A stretch of 64,000 nt of DNA, from positions 1,416,008-1,480,007 of the forward strand of contig JBFWNU010000001.1 of NCBI GenBank assembly GCA_050250895.1. The letters are read 5' to 3'. Origin of the DNA: Vulcanimicrobiota bacterium (GTDB lineage Bacteria > Vulcanimicrobiota > Xenobia > Xenobiales > JADMJV01). Position 1 is the stretch's first letter; each line of letters opens with the position of its first letter. Position numbers and translations under genes: made by a program. Below, piece by piece: positions 17,023 through 60,296 of the stretch. The notes beneath the pieces are model-generated. The model ran no database searches, was not told the DNA's origin, and worked only from the letters and a program-made list of their open reading frames with translations.

Positions 17023-17043
17023 TTCGAACTTTGGGTGTTCGAG

Positions 17044-41606: not shown

Positions 41607-42935
41607 GTGAATGCACGTATCGTCTGTCGTTCCTGTGAGCGAGACGTCTTCGTCGAGGCCGCTACTGCTCTGGGATATCAGACAGGCGCCCACCATAACT
41701 GGGCAGAGCTGCTGATCCTTGATTTGCGAATCGCCGAGGCCGAAGCCCTGTGGGAAGAATATCTGAGGGCCGACCCGCCGGGTACTGTGGTGCTGCTCAC
41801 CGCTGACCGCGAGCGGTGTCTAGAGTTGCTACCGGACCTGCCCGGCAAGCCCGTGGATGTGTTGATTCCGCCCATCGAGTCCGACCGGGTCATTGCGCGT
41901 ATCGCTCGGCTGGGGCGTAGTCATCGTCCCGAGAGCTTTCTCGAGCAGTTGATCGAGCATATCCCCCACATGATTTTCGTCAAAGAGGCCAGTACGCTTC
42001 GCTTCGTCCACTTTAACGCGGCGGGCGAAAACTTGCTGGGCATTCCTCGAAGCGAACTCATCGGCAAACGCGATCAGGATTTCTTTCCCCCACACGAGAG
42101 CGATTTCTTCACCGAAAGGGATCGCGAAGTGATTGCCGGGGGTCGACCGCTAGAGATTCCCGAGGAGCCCGTCCAGACTCGCTTTGGCGAGCGCCTGTTG
42201 CGCACCATCAAGATTCCGATCCGTGATGCCCAGGGCCGTATCTGTTATCTGCTTGGCCTTTCCGAAGACATCACCGAGCAGAAACGGGCCGAAGAGGCTC
42301 TGCGCGGACTGCAAGCCCGCTTGCGTTCGGCCCAGGAGCGCGAGCGACTGTCGATCGCCCGCGAGGTTCACGACGAACTCGGCCAGCTGCTGACGGCCCT
42401 CAAGCTCGATATTGCCTGGCTCGAACGCCGATTCGAGAACGATATCGCCATTCGGGACAAGCTCGAAGGCATGACCGTGCTGGTCGACAGCACCATCGGC
42501 ACGGCCCGCCGCATCGCCCATAGCCTGCGTCCGCAGATCCTCGACGACCTGGGTCTGCTGGCCGGTCTCGACTGGTTGGTTCGCGAGATCTGCGAACGCG
42601 GTGGGGTTCGTTGTCAGGTCCATTGCGATTTTGGCGATGGTGAGCCCTCGGAGGACGTGCGAGTGGCTCTCTTTCGTATCTGCCAGGAAGCGCTGACCAA
42701 TGTGGTGCGTCATGCCCGGGCCACCCAGGCCGAAGTCACTCTCAAGGCGGTGTCGGGGTCGGTACGTCTGGTGGTAGAAGACAACGGGCAGGGGATTGCC
42801 AGCGAGAACCTCACCGGCGTCACTCTGGGTCTAGCCGGCATGCGCGAACGGGCCGAACTTTTCGGTGGCCAACTCACGATCGAGCCTGGGGCTCAGCGTG
42901 GCACCAGGCTCGAGGTCATTCTGCCTACATACTGA
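41607..42935 (+). CDS. Soluble PAS histidine kinase (HisKA_3) with degenerate N-terminal receiver
   Basis: AREVHDELGQ, LRPQILDDLGL, QEALTNVVRHA, DNGQG, GLAGMRER. Confidence 0.92.
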   Translation: MNARIVCRSCERDVFVEAATALGYQTGAHHNWAELLILDLRIAEAEALWEEYLRADPPGTVVLLTADRERCLELLPDLPGKPVDVLIPPIESDRVIARIARLGRSHRPESFLEQLIEHIPHMIFVKEASTLRFVHFNAAGENLLGIPRSELIGKRDQDFFPPHESDFFTERDREVIAGGRPLEIPEEPVQTRFGERLLRTIKIPIRDAQGRICYLLGLSEDITEQKRAEEALRGLQARLRSAQERERLSIAREVHDELGQLLTALKLDIAWLERRFENDIAIRDKLEGMTVLVDSTIGTARRIAHSLRPQILDDLGLLAGLDWLVREICERGGVRCQVHCDFGDGEPSEDVRVALFRICQEALTNVVRHARATQAEVTLKAVSGSVRLVVEDNGQGIASENLTGVTLGLAGMRERAELFGGQLTIEPGAQRGTRLEVILPTY

Positions 42936-45033
42936 CCATGGCCACCGAGTTGACGTTGACCTTCGGGGCGATTTCGTTCCAGCTGAGCAACACCAGGTTG
43001 GGGAAGGAGCGCTCGGTCAGTTTGCGCAAGGCCGGTCGCACGGGCGGCGAGGTCAGCAGAATCGGCTGCAAACCGCGCTCTTGCAGGCTTTGCACTTGAG
43101 CCGAGATAGCCTGTAGGATCTCTTGACCGACGTTGGGGTCGAGGGTCAAGAACGAGCCCTGTTCGGTTCTCTGGATAGCCGCCTGGATGGTCTGCTCGAT
43201 TCCCGGGTCGAGGGTGATGACGTTGATGGTTCCCTCGTTGTTCATGTACTCCTTGCAGATCGAGCGCGACAGCGAAACGCGGGCGAACTCGGTGAGCATC
43301 TCGGGATCCTTGGTCATGCCGACGTTGTCGGCCAGGGTTTCTAGAATCGACACCAGGTCACGGATAGAGACGCGTTCTTTGACCAGGTTCTGAAGCACCT
43401 TCTGGCATTCGCCCAGAGTAAGAGCATCGGGAATGACCTCTTTGACCACGGCCGGGTGGGTCTTCTTGATGGTGTCGATGAGAGCCTGAACTTCTTGGCG
43501 ACCCAGCAGCTCGCTGGCGTGGCTGCGAACCACCTCGGTCAACTGGGTGGCCACTACCGATACCGGGTCGAAGATCATACAACCGTAGCGCTCGGCGTCG
43601 CCGCGCTGTTCGGGCGAGATCCAGACGCCCGGCATTCCGTAGGTCGGGTCGACCGTCTTGATACCGCGCAGATTCTTGAGTTTGTCTTCAGGACCGATGG
43701 CCAGGAACTGGTTAACCTGGACCTCGCCCTGCGCGACCTCGATCTCTTTGATCTTGATGACGTAAGTGTTCGGTTTGAGCTGCAGGTTGTCGCGGAAACG
43801 CACGCCCGGAACCACGATACCGAGTTCCATGGCCACGTGACGGCGAATCGAGGTTACGCGTTCGAGCAGTTTGGCGCCCTGGTTGGGGTCCACCAGACTC
43901 AGCAGGCCACGACCGACCTCCAGCGAGATGGGGTCGACCTGCATCAATTGGACGACGCTCTCGGGCTTCTTGTTCTCTTTCTTCTTGGACTCTTGAACGT
44001 CTTGCTCGACCACTTCTTGAACGACTTCTTTGGACTTGGTCAAGACCACGCCGAAGTAGTAGAAGAATCCGCCGAGCACCAAAAAGGGGATCGGCGGGAA
44101 GGCTACCAGCCCGGTAAAGCCCAGCAGCGAGATCATGACCATAAAGCCGGCCGACAGCTTCATTACGTCGGGTCGGGCCGTGATCTGCTTGGCTAAGTCG
44201 TCACCGAGGTTGGAGTCCGAGGCGGCGCGGGATACCACCATACCCATCGAAGTCGACATCAGGAAGGCCGGCACCGTGGTCACCAGGCCGTTGCCGATGC
44301 TCAAAATAGCGTAGGTGTTAAGGGCGTCGCCGGCGCTCATTCCGTGATAGAGAATGCCGATCAAGATACCGCCCACGACGTTGACGATCATAATCACGAT
44401 CGACGCCATCGAGTCGCCTTTGACGAACTTACCGGCACCGTCCATCGAGCCGTAGAAGTCTGATTCGCGTTCGATTTGACGCCGCTTGAACTTGGCCTCG
44501 TCGGCGTTGATGGTGCCCGAGTGCAGGTCGGCGTCGATGGCCATCTGCTTACCCGGCATGGCATCGAGGGTAAAGCGGGCGGCCACCTGGGCGATACGCT
44601 CGGCACCGTTGGTGATGACCATCAGCTGAATGATGATGAGAATCAAAAACATGACGAAGCCGACTACCAGGTTGCCGCCGACCACGACCTTACCGAAGGC
44701 CGGAATCAGCCGGCCGGCACCGATGGGGTCGCCGGTTACAGGGTCTTTGATGTTACCGTAGAGCAGCACCATGCGGGTGGAAGACACGTCGAGAGCGAGT
44801 CGAAACAACGTCGCCACCAGCAACAAAGTTGGAAATACCGAGAATTCGAGAGGTTCTTCGATGTAGATCGAAATGAGGATGGTGATAATGGCCGAGGCGA
44901 TGTTGAGCACCAGCAACATGTCGAGCAGCTCGGGGGGCATCGGCACGATCAGCATGAACACGATGCCGATGACGCCGACCGCGGTGGCCACGTCCGAGAA
45001 CTTGAGTAGTTTAATTAAAGGATGGTCTTGCAC
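42925..45033 (-). CDS. flhA: Flagellar-type export gate protein
   Basis: ARFTLDAMPGKQMAIDADL, FYGSMDGAGKFVKGD, VDPTYG, ERVSIRDL. Confidence 0.97.
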   Translation of the reverse strand: MQDHPLIKLLKFSDVATAVGVIGIVFMLIVPMPPELLDMLLVLNIASAIITILISIYIEEPLEFSVFPTLLLVATLFRLALDVSSTRMVLLYGNIKDPVTGDPIGAGRLIPAFGKVVVGGNLVVGFVMFLILIIIQLMVITNGAERIAQVAARFTLDAMPGKQMAIDADLHSGTINADEAKFKRRQIERESDFYGSMDGAGKFVKGDSMASIVIMIVNVVGGILIGILYHGMSAGDALNTYAILSIGNGLVTTVPAFLMSTSMGMVVSRAASDSNLGDDLAKQITARPDVMKLSAGFMVMISLLGFTGLVAFPPIPFLVLGGFFYYFGVVLTKSKEVVQEVVEQDVQESKKKENKKPESVVQLMQVDPISLEVGRGLLSLVDPNQGAKLLERVTSIRRHVAMELGIVVPGVRFRDNLQLKPNTYVIKIKEIEVAQGEVQVNQFLAIGPEDKLKNLRGIKTVDPTYGMPGVWISPEQRGDAERYGCMIFDPVSVVATQLTEVVRSHASELLGRQEVQALIDTIKKTHPAVVKEVIPDALTLGECQKVLQNLVKERVSIRDLVSILETLADNVGMTKDPEMLTEFARVSLSRSICKEYMNNEGTINVITLDPGIEQTIQAAIQRTEQGSFLTLDPNVGQEILQAISAQVQSLQERGLQPILLTSPPVRPALRKLTERSFPNLVLLSWNEIAPKVNVNSVAMVSM

Positions 45034-45049
45034 GCTCGCTCCTTAGCCT

Positions 45050-46135
45050 CTACCGTCGTTTCTGTCTTCTCATCTGTCGTTTTCGCTTCAATTTTATGAC
45101 ATAGGCCAGAACTTCGGCCACCGCCTTGTAGAGCTCGGTGGGGATGGCCTGGCCCACTTCGCAGGCTCCGAACAGAGTTCGGGCCAGCTCGACGTTCTCT
45201 ACGATGGGCACATCGTGGTCTTCGGCCAGCACCTTGATCTGCTGGGCAATCAGCTTTTCGCCTTTGGCTACCACCGTGGGCACCGGCGATTCGTCCTTAT
45301 CGTATTTGAGCGCAATGGCCAGGTGGGTGGGGTTGGTGACCACCGCCGACGAGTTGGGAACCTCTTCCATCATGCGACCCTGCGAACCCTGGCGCATCAA
45401 CTGGCGCAGCTTGGCTTTGACCTGGGGGTTACCTTCGGTCTCTTTATACTCGTCTTTGAGTTCCTGGAAGCTCATCTTCATCTGCTTCATGAACTGCTTG
45501 TACTGAAAGGCGTAGTCGACCGCCGCGATGACGGTCATGCCGATCAAGACCTTCTTGACGATCTGCATGCAAATCGAAGTCACCAGTTGAGTGGTGGTGA
45601 GCAATTCCCAGTCGGCAGCCAGCATGAAGTTGGCCAGTTCTCCTTTGACCACCGACAGACAGATCCACCCCACGATCGTCAGCTTGGCGATCTGCTTGAA
45701 CAGCTCCATCAGCGACTTCATCGAGAAGATGCGCTTGAAGCCCTCGACCGGGTTGATCTTGTTGAGGGTGGGCTTGAGCGGCTCGAAGGTGAACAGCAGC
45801 TTGATCTGGGCCACGTTAGCGATGACTGCCATGATGAACACGCCCGCCAACAGGGGAGCCAGGGCAATAGCCACCGTGCCGACCCACCAGATCATCTCTG
45901 GCAGTAGCTCGCGCTCTTCGAAATTGTAATAAGGGATCTGCTCCCAGGCCTTTTTGGTAAAATCGGTGATGGTTTTCCACATGAAGCCACCGGCCGCATA
46001 CAGCATGCCGACGGCCGCCAGCAAGCCGGCGGTCGAAATGACCTCCTGGCTCTTCATCACCTGGCCTTTCTTGCGTTGCTCTTGAAGTTTATGTTCGGTT
46101 GGTTCTTCGGTTTTATCGCTATCCTGGCCACCCAA
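45050..46135 (-). CDS. flhB: Export switch protein
   Basis: KTEEPT, KETEGNP, intact NPTH autocleavage site. Confidence 0.97.
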   Translation of the reverse strand: MGGQDSDKTEEPTEHKLQEQRKKGQVMKSQEVISTAGLLAAVGMLYAAGGFMWKTITDFTKKAWEQIPYYNFEERELLPEMIWWVGTVAIALAPLLAGVFIMAVIANVAQIKLLFTFEPLKPTLNKINPVEGFKRIFSMKSLMELFKQIAKLTIVGWICLSVVKGELANFMLAADWELLTTTQLVTSICMQIVKKVLIGMTVIAAVDYAFQYKQFMKQMKMSFQELKDEYKETEGNPQVKAKLRQLMRQGSQGRMMEEVPNSSAVVTNPTHLAIALKYDKDESPVPTVVAKGEKLIAQQIKVLAEDHDVPIVENVELARTLFGACEVGQAIPTELYKAVAEVLAYVIKLKRKRQMRRQKRR

Positions 46136-46153
46136 AGCTGCCTCACCTCCTTT

Positions 46154-46954
46154 CTATTTTGGCGTTACTTCTCCGATAGTCCTGAAGACATCATCCAGAC
46201 AGATGTCGAACTGTTTTGTCAGCATGGTCAAAATGACCGGCAACCCGACCGAGAACATGGTCAAGCCGACGGCGATGTTGAGCGGGAAGCTCAACATGAA
46301 AACGTTCATTTGGGGGGCCACCCGGGCCAACAGCCCCAGCGCCACCTGAGTGATAAAGAGTGCGGCCAGCGCGGGCGAAGCGATCTGCAGGCCGATCACG
46401 AAGATCGAGGCGCTGATATCCACGAAGTGCGAGACCAGGTTTCCGTCGACGTTAAAGCCGGTCAGGGGCACGACCTCGAAGCTCTTGTAGATGGCGATCA
46501 TCAGCTGGTGATGGCCGTCGACCACGAGATAGAGCAGCATCGCGATGTAGAAATTCAGGCGCATCAGCAGTTTCGAGGCGCCGCCTGAGGAGGGGTCCAT
46601 GGAGGCGGCTACCGACAGACCCATCTGGATGTCCATCATTTCGCCGCCAAACTGAGCCGCCGCCATCACCGTAAACGAGGCGAACCCGATGGCCAGGCCC
46701 ACCACCAACTGAGTCAGGATGGCCAGAATAAAGCCCAGGGGCTCGGTGGGAAAATAGGCGGGAATGGGCAGATTGGGAAAGGCGACGATCGTCAACAGCG
46801 AGGCGATACCGATGCGCACCTTCGAGTTGTAGTGCTTACTACCGAAGATCGGGGCCTGAATCATCACCATCACGATGCGAGCAAAGGCTAGCAGCCCGCA
46901 CCCCAGTGCGATCCAGAGGACCTCGTTGATTTCGCGCTGTCCTGCCATGGCCAT
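46154..46954 (-). CDS. fliR: Export apparatus protein
   Basis: DIQMGL, DGHH, RVAPQMNVF. Confidence 0.95.
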   Translation of the reverse strand: MAMAGQREINEVLWIALGCGLLAFARIVMVMIQAPIFGSKHYNSKVRIGIASLLTIVAFPNLPIPAYFPTEPLGFILAILTQLVVGLAIGFASFTVMAAAQFGGEMMDIQMGLSVAASMDPSSGGASKLLMRLNFYIAMLLYLVVDGHHQLMIAIYKSFEVVPLTGFNVDGNLVSHFVDISASIFVIGLQIASPALAALFITQVALGLLARVAPQMNVFMLSFPLNIAVGLTMFSVGLPVILTMLTKQFDICLDDVFRTIGEVTPK

Positions 46955-46960
46955 CGTGCG

Positions 46961-47260
46961 TTACCCCGATGGTCCTATGCTGCCCACGTCGGTAAAGATG
47001 CGGATGGCGTAACTGCTGACCATGTTGGCAATCCAGGTTCCGCAGACCACCAGCGAGAGGAACGTGGCCACGATCTTGGGCACGAACGACAGGGTCTGTT
47101 CCTGTACCTGAGTCGTGGCTTGCAAGATACTGATAAATAGACCGACTGCCAGAGCCGACATCAACATGGGGGCAGAGAGGATCAAGATGAGATACAATGC
47201 CTCCGTACAGATCTCCATGATGTAGGCATCTGTGAACATCTCTTCAGCGAATATCAGCAT
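46961..47260 (-). CDS. fliQ: Export apparatus protein
   Basis: QATTQVQEQTLSFVPK. Confidence 0.96.
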   Translation of the reverse strand: MLIFAEEMFTDAYIMEICTEALYLILILSAPMLMSALAVGLFISILQATTQVQEQTLSFVPKIVATFLSLVVCGTWIANMVSSYAIRIFTDVGSIGPSG

Positions 47261-47305
47261 GTCGTTTCCTCCCTTCTTGAAAAATAGTCAACCAACGAGC
47301 CGCAC

Positions 47306-48106
47306 CTATGGAGGCATGTTCTCCATGTGGAAGCTCTTGACCAGGCCTTTGATGATCAGGTGCCAACCGTCGATCATGACGAACAGCAACAGTTTGAACG
47401 GCAAAGAGATGGTCATCGGGCTGAGCATGAACATACCCATCGACATCAGCACCGAGGCCACAATCATATCGATGACCAGAAATGGCAGATAGAGCAAGAA
47501 GCCGATCTCGAAGGCGGTCTTGATCTCGGAGAGCACGAAAGCCGGCAACAGAACGTAGATGGGCGCGTCGTTGCGCGACTCGACCTTCTGTTGAGACAGT
47601 TCCAGGAAGAGGATCAGGTCCTTGTCGCGGCACTGCAACAGCATGAACTGTCGGGGCGGGGTAGTCAGCTTGACCATGAACTCTGGCTGCTCCATGGTGC
47701 CGGCCAGATAGGGCTGGATGGCCTCCTTGTTCATCTTGATCCCGACCGGGGCCATGACGTACATGGTGATGAAGAGCGCCAGGCCCATCAACACCTGGGT
47801 AGACGGCACCTGTTGCGTGCCCAGGGCGGTGCGCAAGAAGCTCAGCGTGATGGTCGTCCTGATGAAGGCGGTGCTCATGATCAGGATGTACGGGGCCAAC
47901 GTCAAGGTGGTCAGGAAGAACATGACCTGCAGGAACGATGAGGTCTTGGCTCGTTCGTCCTGGTTGGCTCCGTCGATGGTGATCTTGGGCATCTCGATGC
48001 TGGGGAACTCGTTCTGGGCCTCGACCGGAGAGTAGGCGCCGATCAGACCCACCAGCACCACGGCCAGGAGGAGAATGCCCAACCAGCGGCCGGTTCGAGC
48101 GCTCAT
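47306..48106 (-). CDS. fliP: Export apparatus protein with signal peptide
   Basis: ALGTQQVP, PAFVLSEIKTAF, MGMFMLSP, LPFKLLLF. Confidence 0.97.
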   Translation of the reverse strand: MSARTGRWLGILLLAVVLVGLIGAYSPVEAQNEFPSIEMPKITIDGANQDERAKTSSFLQVMFFLTTLTLAPYILIMSTAFIRTTITLSFLRTALGTQQVPSTQVLMGLALFITMYVMAPVGIKMNKEAIQPYLAGTMEQPEFMVKLTTPPRQFMLLQCRDKDLILFLELSQQKVESRNDAPIYVLLPAFVLSEIKTAFEIGFLLYLPFLVIDMIVASVLMSMGMFMLSPMTISLPFKLLLFVMIDGWHLIIKGLVKSFHMENMPP

Positions 48107-48762
48107 TTCTTCACCCCCATGCCGGGTAGAATCGAGGCGTAGTGGCGCAAAATTTCTTTGTAAGACTGAGGCGGGTCGCCGGACTCGGTGGTGTCGACCT
48201 TGATCGGGCGAGCCGCTTCAAGCTCTTCGGTGGTCAGCTCGCAAAGGGGATTCATGGCGTGCTCGGTCATGCCCACCACCAGGATCTTGCCGGCCACCTC
48301 GACCAGGGAGATGGAATGGGTATGGCTCAGGCGCTGGGTCTCGAGCACTTTGAGGAGGGGCTCACTGGCGCTGGACTTGCCGAAGACCCCGGGGGCGATG
48401 GTGGCCAGGCCCTTCAGAGTGCCCCACACCAGCAGGCAGGTGAGGATGAGCGGCAGCATCAAAGCCCGCAGGTCGGCCAGAAAGCCGTCGTTGGGGGCCC
48501 AATCCGGATCGACTCTGGGGTTCCAGGGGTGGGCCTGACCATAGCTGGGGCCCACCTGATGCTGACTGGGGTTGAGGGCCTCACCGAAGGTTACCGGTCG
48601 CTTGTCGGTCTGGCTGTGAGCCGGCGGTGAGGCGGGCGCGTCTTTGGGCCGCGGCGTGATCCGGGCCAGGGTGAACAGCAGCAGGATGAGCATGCAGGCC
48701 ATGGCGCCCGCCACCAACGGAGAGTTACGCCCAGCCTTGTTATAACCCACACCCTGCATCAA
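48103..48762 (-). CDS. fliO: FliO-like export gate chaperone
   Basis: TM, LKVLETQRL, SISLVEVAGKILVVG; position between fliN and fliP. Confidence 0.8.
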   Translation of the reverse strand: MMQGVGYNKAGRNSPLVAGAMACMLILLLFTLARITPRPKDAPASPPAHSQTDKRPVTFGEALNPSQHQVGPSYGQAHPWNPRVDPDWAPNDGFLADLRALMLPLILTCLLVWGTLKGLATIAPGVFGKSSASEPLLKVLETQRLSHTHSISLVEVAGKILVVGMTEHAMNPLCELTTEELEAARPIKVDTTESGDPPQSYKEILRHYASILPGMGVKK

Positions 48763-49031
48763 TTCATCAATTCGGTGATCCGAACTCCGTAATTTCCCTC
48801 GATCTCTACTACTTCGCCCCTGGCGATGAGGGTCCCGTTGACCACCAGGTCGACGGGGTCGTTGCCGTCTTTGTCGAGTTCGATCACCGCTCCCTCACCG
48901 AATTTCAACACGTCACGCACGCTCTTGGTGGTTCGCCCCATCTCGGCTTCGACGATAAAAGGCACGTCGTAAAGGATGGTAAGATCTTCCCTTTTCTTGG
49001 GCCGTTGAGGCTGTGCGTTGTAATCTTCCAC
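48759..49031 (-). CDS. fliN: C-ring SPOA protein, second copy
   Basis: DVPF..EMGRT, GAVIELDK, ARGEVV, YGVRITE. Confidence 0.93.
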   Translation of the reverse strand: MEDYNAQPQRPKKREDLTILYDVPFIVEAEMGRTTKSVRDVLKFGEGAVIELDKDGNDPVDLVVNGTLIARGEVVEIEGNYGVRITELMN

Positions 49032-49333
49032 TATTTCACAATCTCCGTGATGCGAACGCCATACTGACCATCGATCTCGACCACCTCGCCCCGAGCGATG
49101 GCCTTATTGTTGACCAGAATGTCGACCGGCTCACCGATTTCCTTGTCGAGTTCGACCACCGAGCCCACCTGCAGGCGCAGAATATCCCGCACCAGGCGGC
49201 GGGTCTTGCCCAACTCAGCCTGGACTACCAGAGCGACGTCTTTGAGCAGATCGATCGTGTTGGCGTTGGCCCCCTCGGCCACGCTGCCCTCGAGCTGGCC
49301 GAATTGAACCGCTCGGGGTCCTTGATCACTCAT
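49031..49333 (-). CDS. fliN: C-ring SPOA protein, first copy
   Basis: IDLLKDV, ELGKT, GSVVELDK, ARGEVV. Confidence 0.95.
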   Translation of the reverse strand: MSDQGPRAVQFGQLEGSVAEGANANTIDLLKDVALVVQAELGKTRRLVRDILRLQVGSVVELDKEIGEPVDILVNNKAIARGEVVEIDGQYGVRITEIVK

Positions 49334-50309
49334 CGTATTCTTCGTCTCCCTCTTGCAGAACTCGGTTGATCTTGGCAGCCAGCCGACCGTCTTTGATGCC
49401 GGGCTGGCCGAGAAACTTGGTCTTGTTGTTGACCTTGATTCGCAACGGGTCGCGAATCTCTGAATCCAGGCGGATGGTGTCGCCTACCTCGATGGTTAGC
49501 AGCTCTTGAAAGAGCAGTTCGGCGCGGCCCAAACTGACAGAAACCGGCACTTTGGCATTGTGGATGTGCTCGGGAAAGATGATTTTATCATCTTTGGGCG
49601 CCTGGAAGGTGGTGGTCAGCATGAACTCGTCAAACGACCGCTTGGGGATCATCTCTTTGAGATAGCGGAAAGGCACGCAGACGTTGATCAGGCCTTGAGC
49701 CTGGGCCACATCGACCTGGAAGGCGGTCACCACCATCGTCTCGGAGGGGGCGCAGATATAGACGGCATTGGGGTTGAACTCGAGGCTTTGAAACTGGGCC
49801 TCGACCTGGCCGACATCTTTCCAGGCGTCGCCAAAAGCCGATAGCATACGGCCCAGCGGTTTCTTCAGGATGGCCTTCTCGAGATCGGTAAAATAGGGTC
49901 GCAGCTCTTCTCGCGGGGGAGCGCCCTTGCCACCCATCAAGCGCTCGAAGATGGCAAAGGAGAGGTCGAAATCGATGTCGATGAAGCCCGAGGTGTTGTC
50001 ATTGAGGCGGAAGACCAGCACCGGGGTGGGCTCGGGCAAGGAATTCAGGTAGGAGTGGTAGGGAAAGGTCTTGAGCTTGATCAGCTCCATCTGGAAACGC
50101 GACTGGAGCAGGGGAGCCAACTGGGTGACCACCGCCTCGGAAAAGCCCACGAAAATCTTCTCCAGAAAGCGGTTCTGGTCTGAGGTGAATTTTTCGGTCT
50201 GACGAAAGTCAAAGGTGCTGGCACCCTGAAACCGCTGCCGCTGAGCTGCTCTCATCGCTTGGTCGAATCTTCCGCCATTTCCCAATTTCTCTCGGCCCTC
50301 CACGGGCAA
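49326..50309 (-). CDS. fliM: C-ring protein lacking the CheY-binding peptide; exact start uncertain
   Basis: FDFR..KF, LMGGKG, FTDLE, EFNP, SPOA C-terminus; no LSQxEIDALL. Confidence 0.93.
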   Translation of the reverse strand: MPVEGREKLGNGGRFDQAMRAAQRQRFQGASTFDFRQTEKFTSDQNRFLEKIFVGFSEAVVTQLAPLLQSRFQMELIKLKTFPYHSYLNSLPEPTPVLVFRLNDNTSGFIDIDFDLSFAIFERLMGGKGAPPREELRPYFTDLEKAILKKPLGRMLSAFGDAWKDVGQVEAQFQSLEFNPNAVYICAPSETMVVTAFQVDVAQAQGLINVCVPFRYLKEMIPKRSFDEFMLTTTFQAPKDDKIIFPEHIHNAKVPVSVSLGRAELLFQELLTIEVGDTIRLDSEIRDPLRIKVNNKTKFLGQPGIKDGRLAAKINRVLQEGDEEYDE

Positions 50310-50429
50310 TCGGACCCCCGTCCGCTACCCTACGACTCCCCCATTCGTCCGGATTCGTCGAGGGAGCGAGGTACCCTGGTTTTAACTCTCGCTTTTGGGC
50401 CGACAGCGAGACCAGGTTAGAGTCAGAAG

Positions 50430-50479
50430 GCCATCCGATGAGGATGGCTCTCAAGAAGCGGGCGCCCGAGGCGCCCGCT
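50430..50479 (-). terminator. Tandem hairpins after the flgE-like gene
   Basis: AGCGGGCGCC/GGCGCCCGCT stem (50457-50479) with a short U tail, then GCCATCC/GGATGGC (50430-50448). Confidence 0.7.
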
Positions 50480-50492
50480 CGCCTTGGGAAGA

Positions 50493-51308
50493 CTATCGAA
50501 CCAGACCGAGAGCGGACTGGGTGAGCTTGTCCATAGCCCGGAAGGAGGCCATGTTGGCTTCGAAATTCTGCTTGGTCATGCCGATAGCAGCACCTTCTTG
50601 CATGAAGTCGACGTTAGAGAGTTCGAGGCTGCCGGGAGCGATGCTGCCCAGCGCACCCTGGCCGGCCACCCCGATGACGGCGCCGCCCGAATCGGCCGAC
50701 TCGACAAAGCTGGTGGTTCCCGAGCGCTCGAGCGACCCGGCGTTGGCGAATGAGGCCACGGCGGTTTGATAGATGGGAGTGGTGGTGGTGATCTGCTGCC
50801 CCGTGACGGGGTCGGTCATGGTGGCTTCACCATAGAGCTTACCGGTGTCGTCGAAGTGGAAGCCAGTGTATTTTCCGCCGTAAAGATTGGTGTTGGGATC
50901 GAGAGTCAACTCGATCGGCTTGGAGTCGCCCGAGATGTTGCCCTGCGAGTCGAGGGGGAAGCCCATCACCGACTTGCCCATCGCGTCTTTGAGCGAGCCG
51001 TCTTGCCAGGTGAAGCGACCGTCGCGGGTGTAGTGGTTCTGGAAGCCGTCGTTGACCACGAAGAACCCCTGACCGTTGATGGCCAGGTTGGTGTTGGTTT
51101 GGGTTTTGAAAATCTGGCCCTGATCGAAGGAGACGTTGTTTTTCTTGACTTTGGCGCCGCCAGCCAGGGTCGAACTCATAATGTCGTTGAACTGGACCAC
51201 TTCGGCCTTGTAGCCGGGAGTAAACTGGTTCTTGATGTTCTCGAATCGGCTCTGCAGAATCTCCTGGTTTTGAGCCATGTTGTTGGCAGCGTAGTTAAAA
51301 TCAAACAT
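50493..51308 (-). CDS. Short hook/distal-rod family axial protein (FlgE/FlgG-like, no D2 domain)
   Basis: TPGYK, NLAINGQGFF, YTRDGRF, LELSNVD; 271 aa; occupies the flgE position. Confidence 0.9.
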   Translation of the reverse strand: MFDFNYAANNMAQNQEILQSRFENIKNQFTPGYKAEVVQFNDIMSSTLAGGAKVKKNNVSFDQGQIFKTQTNTNLAINGQGFFVVNDGFQNHYTRDGRFTWQDGSLKDAMGKSVMGFPLDSQGNISGDSKPIELTLDPNTNLYGGKYTGFHFDDTGKLYGEATMTDPVTGQQITTTTPIYQTAVASFANAGSLERSGTTSFVESADSGGAVIGVAGQGALGSIAPGSLELSNVDFMQEGAAIGMTKQNFEANMASFRAMDKLTQSALGLVR

Positions 51309-51383
51309 TCGAAATGGTCCTCTCCTTATTTCAACCCTGTGGTGCGGGGCTGTCCCGCTGTTTCTTTCCTACAAAATTCCTCG

Positions 51384-51443
51384 ATTTTAGAGTAACCGAG
51401 GGCAGTTACATGGGCGTTACCGGCCTGTTAACGAAAAGTTAAC
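51384..51443 (-). promoter_or_regulatory. Internal phased-repeat promoter of the flgE-like gene
   Basis: Minus strand GTTAAC, GTTAAC, GGTAAC, TGTAAC starting at 51443, 51432, 51421, 51410; -10 TACTCT at 51394 overlapping TAAAAT at 51389. Confidence 0.75.
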
Positions 51444-51452
51444 CTACTCGAC

Positions 51453-52388
51453 TCAAACAACCTCCTCGACCAGCTTGACTCGCATCGCTTCCAGGCGAAT
51501 GCCCTTGGCTTTCACCTGGGAGAGAAGTTCTTCTTCGCTCTCTTCAAGCAGCTCGCGAGTGGCCCGCGAAGTGGTCTGGAACTCGGCCCGAATACCCTTT
51601 TCGTCGTGAACAAGCGAAATTTTGACATCGCCGAGGTACTCGGGATTGAGCTTGAGGTTGAGTTCGGTCTGGTTGGCCAGATTGCGTACCTCGACATGCG
51701 CCAGGATCTGATTCATCAGGTTCTGGCGCTGCTCAGCTCGCTGGGCTTCGCCCGTCTTGCCGGCTTCCCGGGTCTTCATCGCCTCTTCGGCCAGCATCTG
51801 CTCGAGACGACCACCGGAGTTCGTATTGCCCGAGGCGGCCAGCTGCTCGTTGCTGGTCTTTTGCTCTTTGCCGTCGGCCTCGCGCAGCAGCGAGTCGATC
51901 AGGCGCGAAAGCTGGTTGCGGTCGGTCTGATTGGTCAGCTGGGTCAACTGCGAGTAGGACAGGTCCTTGAGGTTGAGGCCCTTGCCCAGCAGCATTTTCT
52001 GCAGCTCGGAGAGGCCCACCTTGTCCATCGAAAATTCGCCCAGCTTGAAGGCCTGGCGTTCGGCCGTGGACATCGTAGAAGGGTCCTTGTAGGCCAGCGT
52101 CTCGAGATAGGCCTGGAGCTTGGCCCCACCCTTGAGTTGCTCGGGCTTGGCCTCGACTTTGGCTTCGGCCTTAGCAGCTTCTTTGGCGTCTTCTTTGCCT
52201 TTCTTGGCTTTGTCTTCTTTGTCGGGCGCAGCCTTGTCGTCGATGACGCCTTCTTTGCCGCCGCCGCCCGATTGGACCGCGTCATTCATTGCCGAGCTGA
52301 AAGCCCCGGCGTCGCCCTTGTCGGTTTTCTTGCTCGTCTCACTGGCTTTGGTCGTGCCCATGAGTGAGCCGATGACTGGGTTGTCCAC
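51453..52388 (-). CDS. fliK: Length-control ruler protein
   Basis: Disordered charged N-terminus; C-terminal T3S4 motif LKLNPEYLGDVKISL. Confidence 0.85.
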   Translation of the reverse strand: MDNPVIGSLMGTTKASETSKKTDKGDAGAFSSAMNDAVQSGGGGKEGVIDDKAAPDKEDKAKKGKEDAKEAAKAEAKVEAKPEQLKGGAKLQAYLETLAYKDPSTMSTAERQAFKLGEFSMDKVGLSELQKMLLGKGLNLKDLSYSQLTQLTNQTDRNQLSRLIDSLLREADGKEQKTSNEQLAASGNTNSGGRLEQMLAEEAMKTREAGKTGEAQRAEQRQNLMNQILAHVEVRNLANQTELNLKLNPEYLGDVKISLVHDEKGIRAEFQTTSRATRELLEESEEELLSQVKAKGIRLEAMRVKLVEEVV

Positions 52389-52396
52389 CGTGCCTC

Positions 52397-53041
52397 CTAG
52401 ATGCTCTGTCCGTGGTTGGAACTGTAGTAACGATAGTTGTCGAGAACCTTGGCTACGTAATCTTGCGTTTCTTGATAGGGAGGAACGCCGCCGTGCTTTT
52501 CGACTGCACCGGGACCGGCGTTATAACCGGCGATGACTTTGGTCAGGTTGCCGTCGAAGCGGTCCATCAATTGGCGCAGATAGAGGGTGCCGCCCATGAT
52601 GTTCTGATAGGGATCGTAGGAGTCGGTCACTCCCAGCCCGGCAGCCGTCTCGGGCATCAATTGCATCAAGCCCTGGGCGCCTACATAAGAGGTGGCCTTG
52701 GGGTTATAGGCCGACTCTTGCTTGATGACCGAGCGAATCAGGGCCTGATCCACACCGTGTTTCTTCGAGGCCTCGGCGATCATGCCATCAAAATCCTTCG
52801 AGTCGCCATTCCAACGGTTGGCGTTGAGTTTGGCCGGGCCCGAACGAGCGTCATAGCGCTGATCGTCGGCCAGAGAATTGACCAGGCTCTCGAAGGTCAC
52901 CCCTTCGTTGCCGGCCGGCGCGCCGCTGGTCAGATTGGTCTGGCCGGCGTTGGACTGAAATCCGGCTCGCCCTCCCTCGAGTTTCGAATCGAGTTGGGCG
53001 ATCTTCTTCTCGATCGCGGCCATTCTATTGAATACTGACAC
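52397..53041 (-). CDS. SLT lytic transglycosylase without Sec signal
   Basis: QESAYNP, GAQGLMQLMPET, YNAGPG, ETQDYV. Confidence 0.95.
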   Translation of the reverse strand: MSVFNRMAAIEKKIAQLDSKLEGGRAGFQSNAGQTNLTSGAPAGNEGVTFESLVNSLADDQRYDARSGPAKLNANRWNGDSKDFDGMIAEASKKHGVDQALIRSVIKQESAYNPKATSYVGAQGLMQLMPETAAGLGVTDSYDPYQNIMGGTLYLRQLMDRFDGNLTKVIAGYNAGPGAVEKHGGVPPYQETQDYVAKVLDNYRYYSSNHGQSI

Positions 53042-53052
53042 GATGTTCCTCC

Positions 53053-56049: not shown

Positions 56050-56058
56050 AAGCGGCTC

Positions 56059-57060: not shown

Positions 57061-57116
57061 GGTTGCGCCCCGGGACAGGCCCGAGGCGCAATTCCATCAT
57101 ATCGAAGTCTGGTCGA

Positions 57117-58790
57117 CTAGGACAGCCAGGTGCTCTTGAGCATCTCGGCCACTTTGGTGGGACGCTCTTTGGCCAGCTGTTCTAGCTGCTCGTTGGTGTT
57201 GACTTTGGTCTCGCCAGCGCTCGGAGGAGCGGTCGACTTGCCCGACTTCTCGTTGAGCAGGTCGGCGATGTCGGTCGAGGTGGCGCCCGAGGTGCCGCCC
57301 AGGACCAGTTTGCCCTGGTTGACCTGGACCGAGTGCTGCTTGACCATGAAGGTCAGAATCAGACCCAGGAAGACCAGCGCCACAGCCGTGCCAGCGATGG
57401 TCAGGTGGCGAGCGGTCAAGCCGCCGCCGCCGGCCGTCTCGCCGAAGCCGGGGGGAGGGGTGATGGCCAGATCAGTGCCACCAACCGCCGGACGATAGAT
57501 AGGCATGCTCTCGACCACGACGCTGTCGCCGCGGGCTTCGTCGATACCGATAGCGTTGCGCACGATACCGGCAATCTTGGCCACCTGGTCTTCTTTGAGG
57601 TTGTCAACGACCACCGAAGCGGTCTTGCGTTTGACGCGATAACTCTTGTCTACGGTGCGGGACACGGTCTTGCTGGTGTCGATCTTGACCGACTCGACCT
57701 CGTGCACATAGTTGTTGTTGCTGGTCCCGCCGGATGAAGCCTGTTCGACATCGGTGGACAACTGGCGGGCGTTGGAGCTGCCGCCGGCGTTAGGATCCTT
57801 CGAGTAGCTCTCGACCTTCTTCTGGCGGCCCACTACGACGGTGCCCTGGTCAGCCGGTCCGCCCACCACCGAACGGGTTACTTCGTTTTGGGAGAAGTCG
57901 AGTTCGGCATTCACGGTGGCCACGGCTTTGCCCGGGCCGAGAACTTTGTCGAGCTGGTCTTGAACCTTTTGGGTTAGCTCTTTTTCAATACCCAGCTGGG
58001 TCTCTTGTTGGGTGCCAGCGACTTGCGCGCCGTCGGGGCCCTGAGGCAACTGGGCGGTCAGGTCCATTCCCATGGTGTCCACGATTTTGACGTGCTCGGG
58101 CAAGAGTTCAGGCACCGAGAAAGAGACCAGATGGACGATGCCAGCGATCTGCTCGCGGGTCAGCTTGGCGCTCGGCTCGAGTTTGACCAGCACCGTGGCG
58201 GTGGTCGGGCGCGAGTCGTCGCGGAAGTAGGTCTGCTCGGGAATGGCCAGCTTGATGTAAGCGTCGGCCACGCCTTCAACCTGGCGAACGGTTTCGGTCA
58301 GTTCGCCCTCCAGCATCCGCTGGCGTAAAGCTTTCTGTTCGGCCTGAGTCTTGGCCTGAATGCCACCTTCGGGGGTATTGTAGGGGGTGGTGATAGCGTG
58401 CCGGGGCAGGCCTTTGGCAGCCAGGGCCACCTGGGCACGAGCTTTGGTTTTGGGAGAGACCAGAATGCCGTCGAGCAAGTCCACATTGTGGGGGATGCCC
58501 AGGCTGGTGAGTTCCATCGCCACGGCCTTGGTGTCTTCGTCGTTAAGCTTCGTGGTGTAGAGAGGCACGTAGGCGTTGGCCGTGTTGGAGTGGACCACGA
58601 AGGCCGTTCCCAAAATGGCGATCACCAGAAATGCCGAAAGAGCGATCTTGGTACCTTTGCCAAGTCCCTCCCACATTTCTTTGATTTTTCCCAGGGGCCC
58701 GCCTCCGCCGGCTGGACCTTTCCCGATTGCGGAGCGTCCTGTTGCCAGGCGACTGCCGCTTTTCATCCCCGTTTGGATCCCGGTGGCCAT
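57117..58790 (-). CDS. fliF: MS-ring protein
   Basis: Two TMs, LEGEL, VNAELDF, AIGIDEARGD. Confidence 0.95.
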   Translation of the reverse strand: MATGIQTGMKSGSRLATGRSAIGKGPAGGGGPLGKIKEMWEGLGKGTKIALSAFLVIAILGTAFVVHSNTANAYVPLYTTKLNDEDTKAVAMELTSLGIPHNVDLLDGILVSPKTKARAQVALAAKGLPRHAITTPYNTPEGGIQAKTQAEQKALRQRMLEGELTETVRQVEGVADAYIKLAIPEQTYFRDDSRPTTATVLVKLEPSAKLTREQIAGIVHLVSFSVPELLPEHVKIVDTMGMDLTAQLPQGPDGAQVAGTQQETQLGIEKELTQKVQDQLDKVLGPGKAVATVNAELDFSQNEVTRSVVGGPADQGTVVVGRQKKVESYSKDPNAGGSSNARQLSTDVEQASSGGTSNNNYVHEVESVKIDTSKTVSRTVDKSYRVKRKTASVVVDNLKEDQVAKIAGIVRNAIGIDEARGDSVVVESMPIYRPAVGGTDLAITPPPGFGETAGGGGLTARHLTIAGTAVALVFLGLILTFMVKQHSVQVNQGKLVLGGTSGATSTDIADLLNEKSGKSTAPPSAGETKVNTNEQLEQLAKERPTKVAEMLKSTWLS

Positions 58791-58865
58791 AGTTTCTCCT
58801 CTCCTACCTACCGGCGCTCTCTCTCTGTTTTAGCGAGCGCCGCTCCTTACCCCTCGCGAACTTTC

Positions 58866-59216
58866 TTAGAGCTGCATCTGGAACAGCTGAGTGGTGGCTT
58901 GGGCCATCTTGCCCACCACGGTGGTGGTCAGCTTCATCATCACCTCGGCCTTGGCGCCGGCGATGGTCATCTCGTGCAGGCCGTCCATGTTGCCGCTCAA
59001 CAGGTTGTTGGTCGACTTGATGGAGCCGTCGATGGTCGTGTTGACGGTGTTGAGGCTCTCAGCCAGCACGGCGCCGAAGGCTTTACCGTTTTCTTCGGAC
59101 TGACCGGGCTGCTCGATCATTTTCGGCATGCCGATGCCGGAGATCGGGGAACCGGTGGTTCCGATGCCGCTTACGCCGGAAGTGATACCCTGAATGGATT
59201 GAAAGGGGGACTGCAT
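58866..59216 (-). CDS. fliE: Basal body adaptor
   Basis: FGAVL, LHEMTIAGAKAE, C-terminal MQL. Confidence 0.9.
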   Translation of the reverse strand: MQSPFQSIQGITSGVSGIGTTGSPISGIGMPKMIEQPGQSEENGKAFGAVLAESLNTVNTTIDGSIKSTNNLLSGNMDGLHEMTIAGAKAEVMMKLTTTVVGKMAQATTQLFQMQL

Positions 59217-59227
59217 AATCTTACTCC

Positions 59228-59710
59228 TTAGCCTTTACCGATCTCGAGAGCTTTCATCGCCATCGCTTTCGCCGATTCGATGGTGGTTGCGTTAGCCTCG
59301 TAGGCGCGACTGGCGGCCATCATCGAGGTCATTTCTTGAATGATGTTGACGTTGGGCATCGCGACGTAGCCTTTGCGATCACCCTCCTTTTCGGCGTTGG
59401 GATTGGTGGGGTCGTAGACCCAGCGGAAGTCGCTATTGTCTTCCATAATCCCGTTGACGCCGACACCGCCGCCCGAGAAGTTGACTTTGTTGTTGAAGTC
59501 GAACTCGCCGTCCATCGAGGCAGTGGTGAACGCCTGGTCGAACATCTCGGCCTGCTTGGCATTGATCACGGCAACCTGACGGCGGTAAGGATCTCCGTCT
59601 TCGGTTTTCGAGGTGTTCGCGTTGGCGATGTTGTTGGACACCACATCCATACGGAACTGCTCGGCGCGCATTCCGCTGGCTGCAATATCGAAGGTCTGGA
59701 AGAATTTCAT
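59228..59710 (-). CDS. flgC: Proximal rod protein
   Basis: SNNIANANT, PYRRQ, GYVAMPNV, ASRAYEAN. Confidence 0.97.
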   Translation of the reverse strand: MKFFQTFDIAASGMRAEQFRMDVVSNNIANANTSKTEDGDPYRRQVAVINAKQAEMFDQAFTTASMDGEFDFNNKVNFSGGGVGVNGIMEDNSDFRWVYDPTNPNAEKEGDRKGYVAMPNVNIIQEMTSMMAASRAYEANATTIESAKAMAMKALEIGKG

Positions 59711-59729
59711 CTAGTCTGCCTCTCTCGTC

Positions 59730-60149
59730 TTATCGACCGCTGTTTTCGACAACCCACTTCAGGGAGCCGTAGATGCCCGAGATCTTCGAAGCCAGAGCGT
59801 TATACATAATCTGGTTCTTGGCCAGACTGGCCATCTCGGAGTTGACATCCACCTTACCGCCCACATCTTCGATGGTGGGCTGCAGGCTGGCTTTGGTCCA
59901 ACCGCCGGCGCCATCAATGGCGAACTCGGGGTCGACTACTCCGGCGGGGCTGAAATCGGTGTCAGAGCCGGCGGCCTCGTCATTGTCCATCGCTTCGCGC
60001 AGATGATTCTCGAAAGCAACGGTCTGGGCTGTGTAGCCCTCGGTATTGACATTGGCCATGTTGTTCGAGATGACTTGCTGGCGCAGCGTGGCCGCACCGA
60101 TAGCCTTCTCTAACAGCGTTGTGTCAACAAGTTGAAACGGCTTCCCCAA
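59730..60149 (-). CDS. flgB: Proximal rod protein
   Basis: RQQVISNNMANVNTEGY, VDVNSEM, NQIMY; AGGAGG RBS and TTG start. Confidence 0.95.
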   Translation of the reverse strand: MGKPFQLVDTTLLEKAIGAATLRQQVISNNMANVNTEGYTAQTVAFENHLREAMDNDEAAGSDTDFSPAGVVDPEFAIDGAGGWTKASLQPTIEDVGGKVDVNSEMASLAKNQIMYNALASKISGIYGSLKWVVENSGR

Positions 60150-60241: not shown

Positions 60242-60296
60242 AGTTTACCGGCGCGGTGTTTCTGTTATGTTGAGTCCATGTTAACAGCGTGTTAAC
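60242..60296 (-). promoter_or_regulatory. Phased-repeat promoter of the flgB operon
   Basis: Minus strand GTTAAC(60296), GTTAAC(60285), CTCAAC(60274), AGAAAC(60263); -10 TAAACT at 60247. Confidence 0.75.

Follow-up and report, generated by a model that had tools for sequence, protein, structure and literature searches.

The injectisome and a handful of recent reductions (Buchnera, Lysobacter) account for most of what is known about flagella exapted as secretion systems. The SctF needle and the Hrp pilus are built from helical-hairpin subunits of about 80 aa, the flagellar hook of Salmonella needs FlgD for its polymerisation, and in Bacillus the partners of the hook include FlgD, FlgK/L and flagellin. 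According to PMC3459982, the flagellar core was exapted for export and motility parts were lost both in the injectisome and in the Myxococcales 'Myxo' form (Abby and Rocha 2012). PMC7688988 and PMC3459982 describe the basal bodies of Buchnera aphidicola and the FT3SS of Lysobacter enzymogenes OH11 as flagellar type III systems kept without fliC, for which other export was proposed or shown; OH11 retains flgD, flgE, flgH and flgI (PMC7688988).

Here we analysed a 64,000-nt window (the whole stretch of Vulcanimicrobiota DNA under study), whose flagellar gene cluster encodes a 271-aa axial protein, X271, which an initial annotation had put forward as a filament or needle protein polymerising in place of flagellin or SctF. 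In our preferred reading, to which we give a probability of about 60%, X271 instead forms the terminal tube, equivalent to a hook and measured by FliK, of a type III export apparatus that Xenobia-type bacteria derived from the flagellum and that does not rotate. No description of this system was found among the matches listed in the literature on Eremiobacterota/Xenobia flagella and secretion systems, and the strings 'flagell', 'motil' and 'secretion' do not occur in PMC11484240.

Table 1. Features of the X271 cluster, with positions in the window
Feature	Position	Strand	Basis or remark
flhA, flhB, fliR, fliQ, fliP, fliO and two fliN	42925..49333	-	Pfam
fliM	49326..50309	-	Pfam, sequence comparison; no N-terminal CheY-binding peptide
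Two G+C-rich stem-loops 3' of the X271 stop	50430..50479	-	50458-50479 and 50430-50448
X271	50493..51308	-	ORF, profiles, model; 271 aa, FlgE-derived axial protein, D0-Dc-D1, no D2
Ribosome-binding site AAGGAGAGGA	51318..51327	-	9 nt before the X271 ATG
5'-UTR hairpin GCGGG/CCCGC	51344..51358	-	No counterpart seen in relatives
Stem-loop with T-rich tail	51379..51401	-	Sequence; directly after fliK
Four GTTAAC-like boxes	51405..51443	.	Starts 51405, 51416, 51427, 51438; exact 11-bp period
fliK	51453..52388	-	Pfam; 311 aa, predicted ruler and switch protein with PF02120 (T3S4) at residues 236-305
SLT lytic transglycosylase	52397..53041	-	Pfam/NCBIfam
fliJ	53053-53526	-	Pfam
fliI	53526-55214	-	ORF; the real start is probably internal to it
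fliH	54838-56049	-	Pfam
fliG	56059-57060	-	Two torque-helix Arg replaced
fliF, fliE, flgC, flgB	57117..60149	-	Pfam/NCBIfam
Exact GTTAAC-N5-GTTAAC pair	60280..60296	.	About 130 nt upstream of flgB

The start codon of X271 is backed by the family alignment, in which M1, F2 and D3 are near-invariant. Its membership of the FlgE/F/G superfamily was established by TIGR03506 (128 bits, cut-off 70.25), and the C-terminal D0 and the D1 domains were both recognised by Pfam (PF06429, 23.8 bits, cut-off 23; PF22692, 32.3 bits, cut-off 27; genome scan, 27 bits). The AlphaFold model (pLDDT 85.7) consists of helices at residues 4-26 and 235-270 and a beta-rich D1; the D2 domain is absent from the model and PF07559 was not matched in the sequence. 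Profiles and model thus agree with the initial annotation that X271 comprises D0 and D1 alone. The N-terminal rod motif PF00460 (ANNLAN-type) had no match in X271 at E<=0.01, whereas it matched FlgB (28.4 bits) and FlgC (37.6 bits) of the same cluster, so the D0 motif of X271 is truly diverged, as had been read from the letters; the family consensus at this place is FxNLQNQFTPGYK.

Against the hook FlgE equivalogs (NF004238, NF004241 and others) X271 reached at best 118.1 bits, below the cut-off of 400, with nothing but the N- and C-terminal thirds aligned, and it likewise fell below the cut-offs of the distal rod model TIGR02488 (78 bits against 252.75) and of the short Bacillus-type hook model NF009278; the flagellin domain PF00669 was not matched. 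On Salmonella proteins the X271 profile scored FlgE (110.6 bits) above FlgG (90.7) and FlgF (50.4), the FlgE value being the best PDB sequence match. X271 aligned to FlgE residues 3-120 without the insert of about 20 residues found in FlgG; since its residues 11-115 align to FlgG 12-137, this FlgG-specific Dc insert is missing from X271. Foldseek returned a TM of 0.81 to a D0-D1 FlgE chain and 0.75-0.77 to FlgG chains, all of the top matches being FlgE, FlgG or FlgF. These folds, the length of 271 aa and the beta-rich D1 do not fit a subunit of the SctF or Hrp pilin type. In a tree whose references included FlgG/FlgE loci of other phyla, X271 formed its own clade (100/100, stem 1.48), which falls among FlgE-type proteins and not within the FlgG+FlgF clade (100/98); its placement on the side of short D2-less hook proteins is weak (77/64). 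Judged by these comparisons, X271 is a short, strongly diverged hook-type protein.

A contig search for relatives of X271 listed 80 loci, which were ordinary FlgG/FlgE of other phyla and one 39%-identical paralogue; no close relative was among them. In five named genomes to which these loci led (one Eremiobacteraeota-labelled, one Vampirovibrionales, two Armatimonadota and one Fimbriimonadales) the best match had just 30% identity (E 1e-14), indicating that no X271 orthologue is present in them.

All of the core genes of the cluster (Table 1) were called flagellar by both Pfam and NCBIfam, and X271 is its sole FlgE/F/G-type gene besides flgB and flgC, which bears out its description as the only distal axial gene there. 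The order flgB…fliK-X271-fliM…flhA is identical in genomes of two other families (G003 and G010), with X271 after fliK, where flgE sits. The short FliK noted initially does carry a T3S4 domain, and the FlhB of the cluster has NPTH at residue 268. The flgF and flgG paralogues that the initial annotation had proposed to search for were found elsewhere as a pair in G000, G003 and G010, the FlgG copies being true members of TIGR02488 (305-310 bits, cut-off 252.75). Alongside the pair are genes for a FliA/WhiG sigma factor (200-215 bits against 189.6), a rod-binding protein of FlgJ type and another FliK-like protein.

The presence of a FlgJ-like rod-binding protein and an SLT enzyme in a system without FlgD, the restriction of X271 to D0-D1 as in rod proteins and the Foldseek matches to FlgG chains would also suit an extra distal rod segment, laid down under a FlgJ-type cap and lengthening the rod across the periplasm, and forming no hook or needle. 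This we consider unlikely, because X271 lacks the FlgG-type insert, scores FlgE above FlgG and FlgF, branches outside the FlgG+FlgF clade and stands at the flgE place beside a retained FliK.

The four boxes upstream of X271 read GTTACA, GTTACC, GTTAAC and GTTAAC, the last two together forming TTAA-N7-TTAAC, and two or more hexamers of this kind, spaced by 11 bp, were read by eye in 12 of the 14 orthologous loci (L111 and L030 were degenerate), confirming the phased operator boxes of the initial annotation. The exact pair GTTAAC-N5-GTTAAC occurs eight times in the genome, where base composition alone predicts 0.13. Most genes beside the eight exact and 34 one-mismatch sites had no Pfam family, and no clear functional theme was seen among them, save for flgB, X271, a gene of the YIR family described below and a FliG_N paralogue operon. 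A fifth box, off-phase, lies at 51392-51397 inside the post-fliK stem-loop region, which is possibly the terminator of the upstream transcript.

Other regulatory elements fared unevenly. The AAGGAG-type ribosome-binding site is in place; a -10-like TAAAAT was located at 51384-51389, but it is weak and has no -35, and a sigma-70 scan of 50250-51500 returned 0 sites; the 5' hairpin exists, but no counterpart was seen in the orthologous loci of relatives. The two downstream stem-loops are also present, and the 96 nt that hold them fold at -43.6 kcal/mol (z = -2.8); a terminator scan did not call them, their U-tracts being too weak, but a strong hairpin right after the stop was found in 14/14 orthologous loci, followed in most by a U run. 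The conserved operator array and post-stop hairpin support the claim that X271 is a separately regulated unit. Five wastewater metatranscriptome runs contain part of 49300-53100, and contigs of a relative with about 96% identity span 50550-51229 and 51200-53100 (two of the four runs mapped, both from one study). Contigs of this kind neither reveal a transcript nor allow genes to be ranked, and they speak neither for nor against the high expression suggested initially.

Pairwise dN/dS of X271 was 0.008-0.059 (five within-clade pairs with dS<1.6), by which measure the gene is under strong purifying selection. Together with intact reading frames, the same gene order across families, conserved promoter boxes and a sigma factor of its own, this leaves hardly any room for the cluster as a decaying relic of a lost flagellum, which the missing outer parts could otherwise suggest.

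The source genome carries, elsewhere on contig C1, a second and complete flagellar set (system 1) with flgD, a 419-aa flgE, flgK/L, fliC and fliD. The genome has a single FlgD match (C1:125746-126159), in line with the statement that no flgD is adjacent to X271, and its flagellin PF00669 matches over the cut-off lie at C1:571330 and C1:556403, and at no other place. The initial annotation had set the occurrence of flgD and flagellin elsewhere against its own proposal; both were found, but in a separate complete set, of which no marker was found in a same-genus genome (G088, 98% complete) that has the X271 system, so they do not bear on that system.

X271 was matched in 62 genomes of the phylum, 33 of which had one full-length FlhA (27 of these at least 90% complete). 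Flagellin, FlgD, FlgK, FlgI and FliD were over the Pfam cut-off in none of the 33, as assessed with Pfam models on six-frame searches of mostly metagenome-assembled genomes, and marginal MotB_plug matches (25.6-29.2 bits) appeared in four. This distribution supports the initial view of an apparatus working without flagellin and FlgD. Six genomes had a second FlhA but no outer parts; in one of them (G050) the extra FlhA, a full-length paralogue, was an orphan lacking further type III neighbours for about 17 kb, and was rejected as a second system.

That one genome carries both sets raises the question of an alternative hook subunit for the system-1 flagellum. We regard this role for X271 as very improbable, since system 1 has its own FlgD, a 419-aa FlgE with D2 and an 899-aa FliK, while the 33 one-FlhA genomes had none of the five system-1 markers over the cut-off and the same-genus genome showed none either.

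The motor and switch parts of the cluster are remodelled. Its FliG has E/D and P/S in place of two torque-helix arginines of the T. maritima and system-1 FliG, and its FliM is without the CheY-binding LSQxEIDALL that the system-1 FliM has. LpxC was present in all five genomes tested, indicating that these X271 bearers are diderms; FlgH was not found in four genomes (G003, G010, G017 and G088), and no L- or P-ring protein was found that would provide a route through the outer membrane. The tube may end in the periplasm. By gene content, the machine appears to have no stators, CheY input, L/P rings, hook cap, junction proteins, flagellin or filament cap, from which we infer that it would not rotate or swim and would serve export. 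It looks like a flagellum re-used for something other than swimming.

The same observations bear on the claim that X271 itself builds an outer filament or needle, long and abundant, which extends beyond the cell in the place of flagellin or SctF. No other distal axial protein can be recognised, the gene is flanked by an operator array and a post-stop hairpin of its own, and flagellin was not found where the system stands alone; these points are outweighed by the retained FliK and FlhB, a putative ruler and switch that would imply a short, measured structure, by the derivation of X271 from FlgE, unlike flagellin or SctF, and by the outer membrane of these diderms, for which neither an L/P ring nor another passage was found. 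The major-filament role is therefore improbable, and we do not follow the initial annotation on it.

In the hook-equivalent reading, the apparatus would have its export gate, ATPase complex, MS ring and C ring complete, and a rod of FliE, FlgB, FlgC, FlgF and FlgG. X271 would leave as an early export substrate and polymerise on the FlgG distal rod as a thin D0-D1 tube, the length of which would be measured by FliK; FliK would then flip FlhB to late substrates. Against this reading, no hook cap that would assemble the tube was found, and Salmonella hooks depend on FlgD.

Foremost among the candidate late substrates are the small YIR proteins, which form a new multi-copy family, together with their small partner protein. 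In relatives, YIR genes adjoin flhA (G003, G010, G017, G088, G046, G054 and G048), lying directly downstream of it, and in the source genome they are located at C1:870-874 kb; GTTAAC boxes are common to YIR genes and X271. Of 151 genomes of the phylum, 53 had YIR genes; there were none in the 82 genomes of three families (f15, f20 and f21) that are also without X271, and 14 genomes had X271 without a YIR match. YIR had no match in Pfam, NCBIfam or PDB sequences, and hhalign showed no similarity to the X271 family, flagellin or FlgM. The YIR domain is also found at the C-terminus of RHS-repeat and VgrG-labelled proteins elsewhere, which fits an effector domain and carries no tie to type III export. 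Separately, Atlas look-alikes of YIR comprised HrpA_pilin clusters (0.90) and an HrpE-like cluster (0.88), which we record as a lead.

A wider interpretation, which we put forward tentatively and hold to be somewhat doubtful, is that the X271 cluster represents a second, independent exaptation of the flagellum to a nanomachine for effector export, in parallel with that which gave rise to the injectisome, and fixed across Xenobia-type Vulcanimicrobiota (Eremiobacterota), gut-associated lineages included. X271 would then be the needle-equivalent, the YIR-domain proteins the dedicated cargo, each with a small partner, and the system would possess a sigma-28 and a master operator (GTTAAC repeats) of its own.

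What is described here is a streamlined flagellar derivative, conserved and under purifying selection across numerous families of a diderm phylum that has hardly been cultured, with a full rod and C ring yet no stator, CheY input, L/P rings, hook cap or filament detected. It offers a natural setting in which to ask what flagellar parts export by itself requires, how a FlgE-type tube is assembled without FlgD and what the substrates of such machinery are. A further caution is that a 'flagellar assembly' call for a genome of this phylum should not be equated with motility.

With Salmonella-type FlgE (PDB 6JZT/3A69), X271 shares the D0 helices, the D1 fold, a short Dc that does not carry the FlgG insert and the gene position after fliK, and its cluster also encodes a FliK and an FlhB with NPTH, but it is without D2 and the PF00460 motif, scores 118 bits against the equivalog cut-off of 400 and is unaccompanied by FlgD, FlgK and FlgL. 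The short D2-less hooks of Bacillota and others (NF009278, about 263 aa) are of the same D0-D1-only hook type and of similar length, and hook-type proteins of 269-337 aa were found in Lysinibacillus, Clostridiales, Verrucomicrobiota and Planctomycetota records; in contrast, X271 stands on its very long stem and reaches 79.4 bits with NF009278 (cut-off 350), where a Lysinibacillus protein reaches 406.6.

Whereas OH11 keeps flgD, flgE, flgH and flgI, FlgD and FlgI were not found in the 33 one-FlhA genomes, nor FlgH in the four searched. Unlike the Buchnera and Lysobacter systems, the X271 trait spans many families of its phylum, and its system has a remodelled FliG and FliM and an attached small-protein module. 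From the injectisome it differs in keeping FliG, FliE, FlgB, FlgC, FlgF and FlgG and in a FlgE-type tube in place of SctF, while the two would have in common a ruler (FliK/SctP type), a switch (FlhB/SctU type) and, as we propose for X271, a short, measured distal tube.

X271, the 271-aa FlgE/F/G-superfamily protein under study, passed the NCBIfam subfamily model TIGR03506 (128 bits vs a cut-off of 70.25) and reached no NCBIfam equivalog cut-off: FlgE equivalogs scored at most 118 bits (cut-off 400) and the FlgG equivalog 78 bits (cut-off 252.75); NF009278, the Bacillus-type short hook, gave 79 bits (cut-off 350). The Pfam model for D1 matched X271 and the one for the C-terminal D0 segment did so narrowly, whereas the N-terminal rod motif, matched in FlgB and FlgC of the same cluster, was not matched in X271, supporting the divergence of the N-terminal D0 motif proposed in the initial annotation. 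The D0 plus D1 architecture proposed there was likewise borne out by an AlphaFold model (39 family members as input, mean pLDDT 85.7), in which residues 4-26 and 235-270 form terminal helices, D1 is rich in beta structure and D2 is absent. The top Foldseek matches of this model were a D0-D1 FlgE chain (8z5u_D, TM 0.81) and FlgG chains (TM 0.75-0.77). Against Salmonella axial proteins the X271-family profile scored 110.6 bits for FlgE, 90.7 for FlgG and 50.4 for FlgF. FlgE residues 3-120 aligned one to one with the profile and FlgG was about 20 residues longer over the equivalent stretch; X271 therefore lacks the FlgG insert, which is said, from Salmonella polyrod work, to stiffen FlgG. Maximum-likelihood phylogenetic analysis of 55 proteins recovered the X271 family as a single clade (support 100/100), which had a very long stem (1.48), was excluded from the FlgG and FlgF clade (100/98) and was placed weakly with FlgE-type proteins (77/64). 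X271 is real and conserved, an unusual protein derived from FlgE.

The four phased operator boxes described upstream of X271 were exact, and the array was kept in non-coding DNA of relatives spanning 44% to 61% G+C. Exact GTTAAC-N5-GTTAAC pairs occurred eight times in the genome holding the window (G000), against 0.13 expected, and in G010, a relative from another family, box pairs preceded flgB, X271 and the flgF/flgG cluster. A strong hairpin just past the X271 stop codon was present in all 14 orthologous loci examined, with a U run in most; the U runs at the downstream hairpins were weak in G000. The conservation of array and hairpin indicates that X271 really is laid out as a gene under its own control within the cluster. 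The proposed -10 fared worse, being weak, and no promoter was returned by a sigma-70 scan. The stem-loop directly after fliK may be the terminator of the upstream transcript. X271, fliK and the lytic transglycosylase (SLT) gene were covered by metatranscriptome contigs of a ~96%-identical relative, which cannot rank gene expression. Genome-wide, TGTTAAC direct repeats of 11-bp period (TTAA-N7-TTAAC; 8 exact and 34 one-mismatch pairs in G000) mostly preceded genes without known family, a FliG_N-paralogue operon at C2:81-83 kb among them.

Positions of the features discussed (bare coordinates, window; C, contigs of G000 unless another genome is named; L, extracted loci)
Feature	Position	Strand	Details
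X271	50493-51308	minus	271 aa; sole gene within 50430-51443
Window flagellar cluster (Pfam)	42925-60149	minus	flgB flgC fliE fliF fliG fliH fliI fliJ SLT fliK X271 fliM fliN fliN fliO fliP fliQ fliR flhB flhA
Operator boxes	starts 51405, 51416, 51427, 51438		GTTACA, GTTACC, GTTAAC, GTTAAC; upstream of X271
Exact GTTAAC-N5-GTTAAC pair	60280-60296		upstream of flgB
TTAA-N7-TTAAC copies in window	51427-51443; 60280-60296
Stem-loop, T-rich tail	51379-51401		directly after fliK
Second set, block 1	C1:121-130 kb		fliI, 899-aa fliK, flgD, 419-aa flgE with D2, motA, motB, fliP (L013-L016 cover both blocks)
Second set, block 2	C1:545-593 kb		fliN, fliM, cheX, flgM, flgK, flgL, fliW, csrA, flgF, flgG, flgA, flgH, flgI, 617-aa flagellin, fliD, sigma factor, flhA, flhB, fliR, flgC, fliF, fliG, fliH
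Third FliF-like gene	C2:554980-556563 (L018:8980-10563)		527 aa; YscJ_FliF and its C-terminal domain
FlhA cytoplasmic-domain paralogues	C1:2013.8-2014.9 kb (L126:7306-8436); C1:2473.6-2476.6 kb (L130:1105-4110); C1:1126.9-1128.2 kb (L131:1938-3245); C6:529.3-530.7 kb (L132:1782-3167)		without membrane part
Orphan FlhA	G050:C21:61644-63740 (L142)		full-length
X271 paralogue	G050:C9:66126-66776 (L144)		not adjacent to other type III genes
YIR module	C1:870-874 kb (L133: 7175-7471, 7647-7910, 8056-9024)
Further YIR copies	C1:1511063-1511341; C1:1600703-1601110; C5:258539-258826; C3:129530-130135		C5 copy: exact box pair 184 nt upstream
Circularly permuted ATP-grasp / Alpha-E / transglutaminase gene set, copy 1	17035-20335	plus	5 kb from copy 2
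Same gene set, copy 2	25145-28389	minus

No flagellar genes were found in the window outside this cluster, and a second, complete flagellar set lies in two blocks on contig C1. An ordinary flgD plus flagellin elsewhere, which the initial annotation had named as refuting its proposal, is present in G000, so that, formally, this test goes against the proposal; the ordinary set was not found in the same-genus genome G088. The two sets were compared for parts connected with rotation. In an alignment to Thermotoga maritima FliG (PDB 1LKV), two torque-helix arginines (R281 and R297 in E. coli numbering) were replaced, one by E/D and the other by P/S, in the X271-system FliG of G000, G010 and G003, a relative of the same order; the second-set FliG kept both. 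The LSQxEIDALL peptide of FliM, which has a role in CheY binding, was present in the second-set protein and missing from that of the X271 system. Stator genes were not found in most genomes with a single FlhA. These are signs, read from gene content and residues, of a machine that would be non-rotating. The third FliF-like gene lies away from the type III clusters, between genes for a ClpB-like ATPase and a PAS-SpoIIE phosphatase. In G000 the FlhA cytoplasmic-domain paralogues are fused to an HTH, FlhB_C-like or FliG_N-like domain (the last in a 1001-aa protein); FlhA_C-only paralogues were also found in all five small relatives checked.

A search of 5.8 billion proteins yielded 204 X271 homologues (E<=0.001), most of 270-274 aa, and those named were labelled as Eremiobacteraeota, Vulcanimicrobiota, Armatimonadetes or Chloroflexi MAGs. 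Within the phylum, 62 of 151 genomes had a match at E<=1e-49, all from families f1-f14 and f16-f19. The best matches of G096 and G090 were paralogous or cut off, and families f15, f20 and f21 (82 genomes, including unpublished G127) gave weak FlgE/G-level matches only. Models for full-length FlhA, flagellin, FlgD, MotB_plug, FlgK_D1, FlgI and FliD_C were run over the 62 genomes. Among the 33 with one FlhA (27 at least 90% complete; G088, 98% complete, included), none had flagellin, FlgD, FlgK, FlgI or FliD over the cut-off, and MotB_plug gave four marginal matches (25.6-29.2 bits). Among the 27 with two or more FlhA, each of these five proteins occurred in 19-20 genomes and MotB_plug in 20, the outer parts being absent from six. 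One of the six, G050, was looked at more closely: its additional FlhA is an orphan with 62% identity to the FlhA of the window, and its surroundings hold no other export genes within ~17 kb but do include a FliG_N/FlhA_C-like gene. Two genomes (G086 and G013, 71-75% complete) had no FlhA at threshold. Gene order around X271 was identical in G003 (56% G+C) and G010 (44% G+C). As the relatives demonstrate, the X271 cluster is a system of its own. G000, G003 and G010 have a second cluster in common, which encodes FlgF, FlgG (passing TIGR02488), a FlgJ-type rod-binding protein and a FliA/WhiG sigma factor, together with a FliK-like and a small FlhB_C-like protein. Four relatives gave no FlgH match, and three of these four are one-FlhA genomes that have the X271 system alone. 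All five genomes tested for LpxC encode it, which marks the cells as diderm. Vulcanimicrobium alpinus, the phylum's only cultured member, is reported to be Gram-negative and to lack both flagella and a flagellin gene (PMC9758169). Some relatives also carry X271 paralogues (P0110-P0121) in which a hydrophobic, signal-peptide-like N-terminus replaces the N-terminal D0 helix and the C-termini differ; none was found in G000.

In seven relatives (G003, G010, G017, G088, G046, G054 and G048) flhA is directly followed by a gene for a small conserved partner protein (79-114 aa) and then by one to three tandem genes for YIR proteins (77-113 aa), whose N-terminus is Gly-rich and variable and whose ~65-aa C-terminal domain, also found on longer variants, is highly conserved and ends in YIR(S/G/A/Q). 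Inspection by eye showed YIR genes of several genomes to have box pairs in common, together with a promoter-like motif, CTTTAC-N15/16-GnGATAAT. The family was detected in 53 of the 151 genomes, mostly in 2-9 copies, and in none of the 82 from f15, f20 and f21. An X271 match accompanied it in 48 of the 53 (the other five being 64-85% complete), and 14 X271-bearing genomes had no YIR match. No relatives were found in Pfam, NCBIfam or PDB. Among 1.84 billion representatives, a search with the family profile retrieved 492 proteins, with the domain nearly always at the very C-terminus, among them JGI-labelled RHS repeat-associated and VgrG proteins from metagenomes and TIR-domain proteins; this C-terminal spread fits a putative effector-type or delivery-related module. 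A language-model search gave, as a lead only, a small YIR protein near Hrp-pilin clusters (0.90). The YIR proteins might, with their partner, be late substrates. In flagellar systems, chaperones of late substrates bind their clients at the C-terminus, a scheme that the partner-plus-YIR pair would fit.

All listed X271 orthologues had open reading frames, and dN/dS of within-clade pairs with dS below 1.6 was 0.008-0.059. The NPTH autocleavage site of FlhB and the C-terminal domain of FliK were kept, so the early-to-late substrate switch should still work. Judged by its coding sequences, the X271 system is functional and not decaying. The FlgE derivation of X271 argues against the long filament in place of flagellin that was proposed initially. 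On the reading with most support, X271 would form the end tube, a hook equivalent of measured length, of a flagellar-type export machine that does not rotate. Such machines are widespread in Xenobia-type Vulcanimicrobiota, a designation taken in part from the source labels of YIR homologues. Flagellin-less flagellar export is already known from Buchnera and Lysobacter (PMC7688988, PMC3459982), and with those precedents the machine of the X271 system would be a variant and not the first of its kind.
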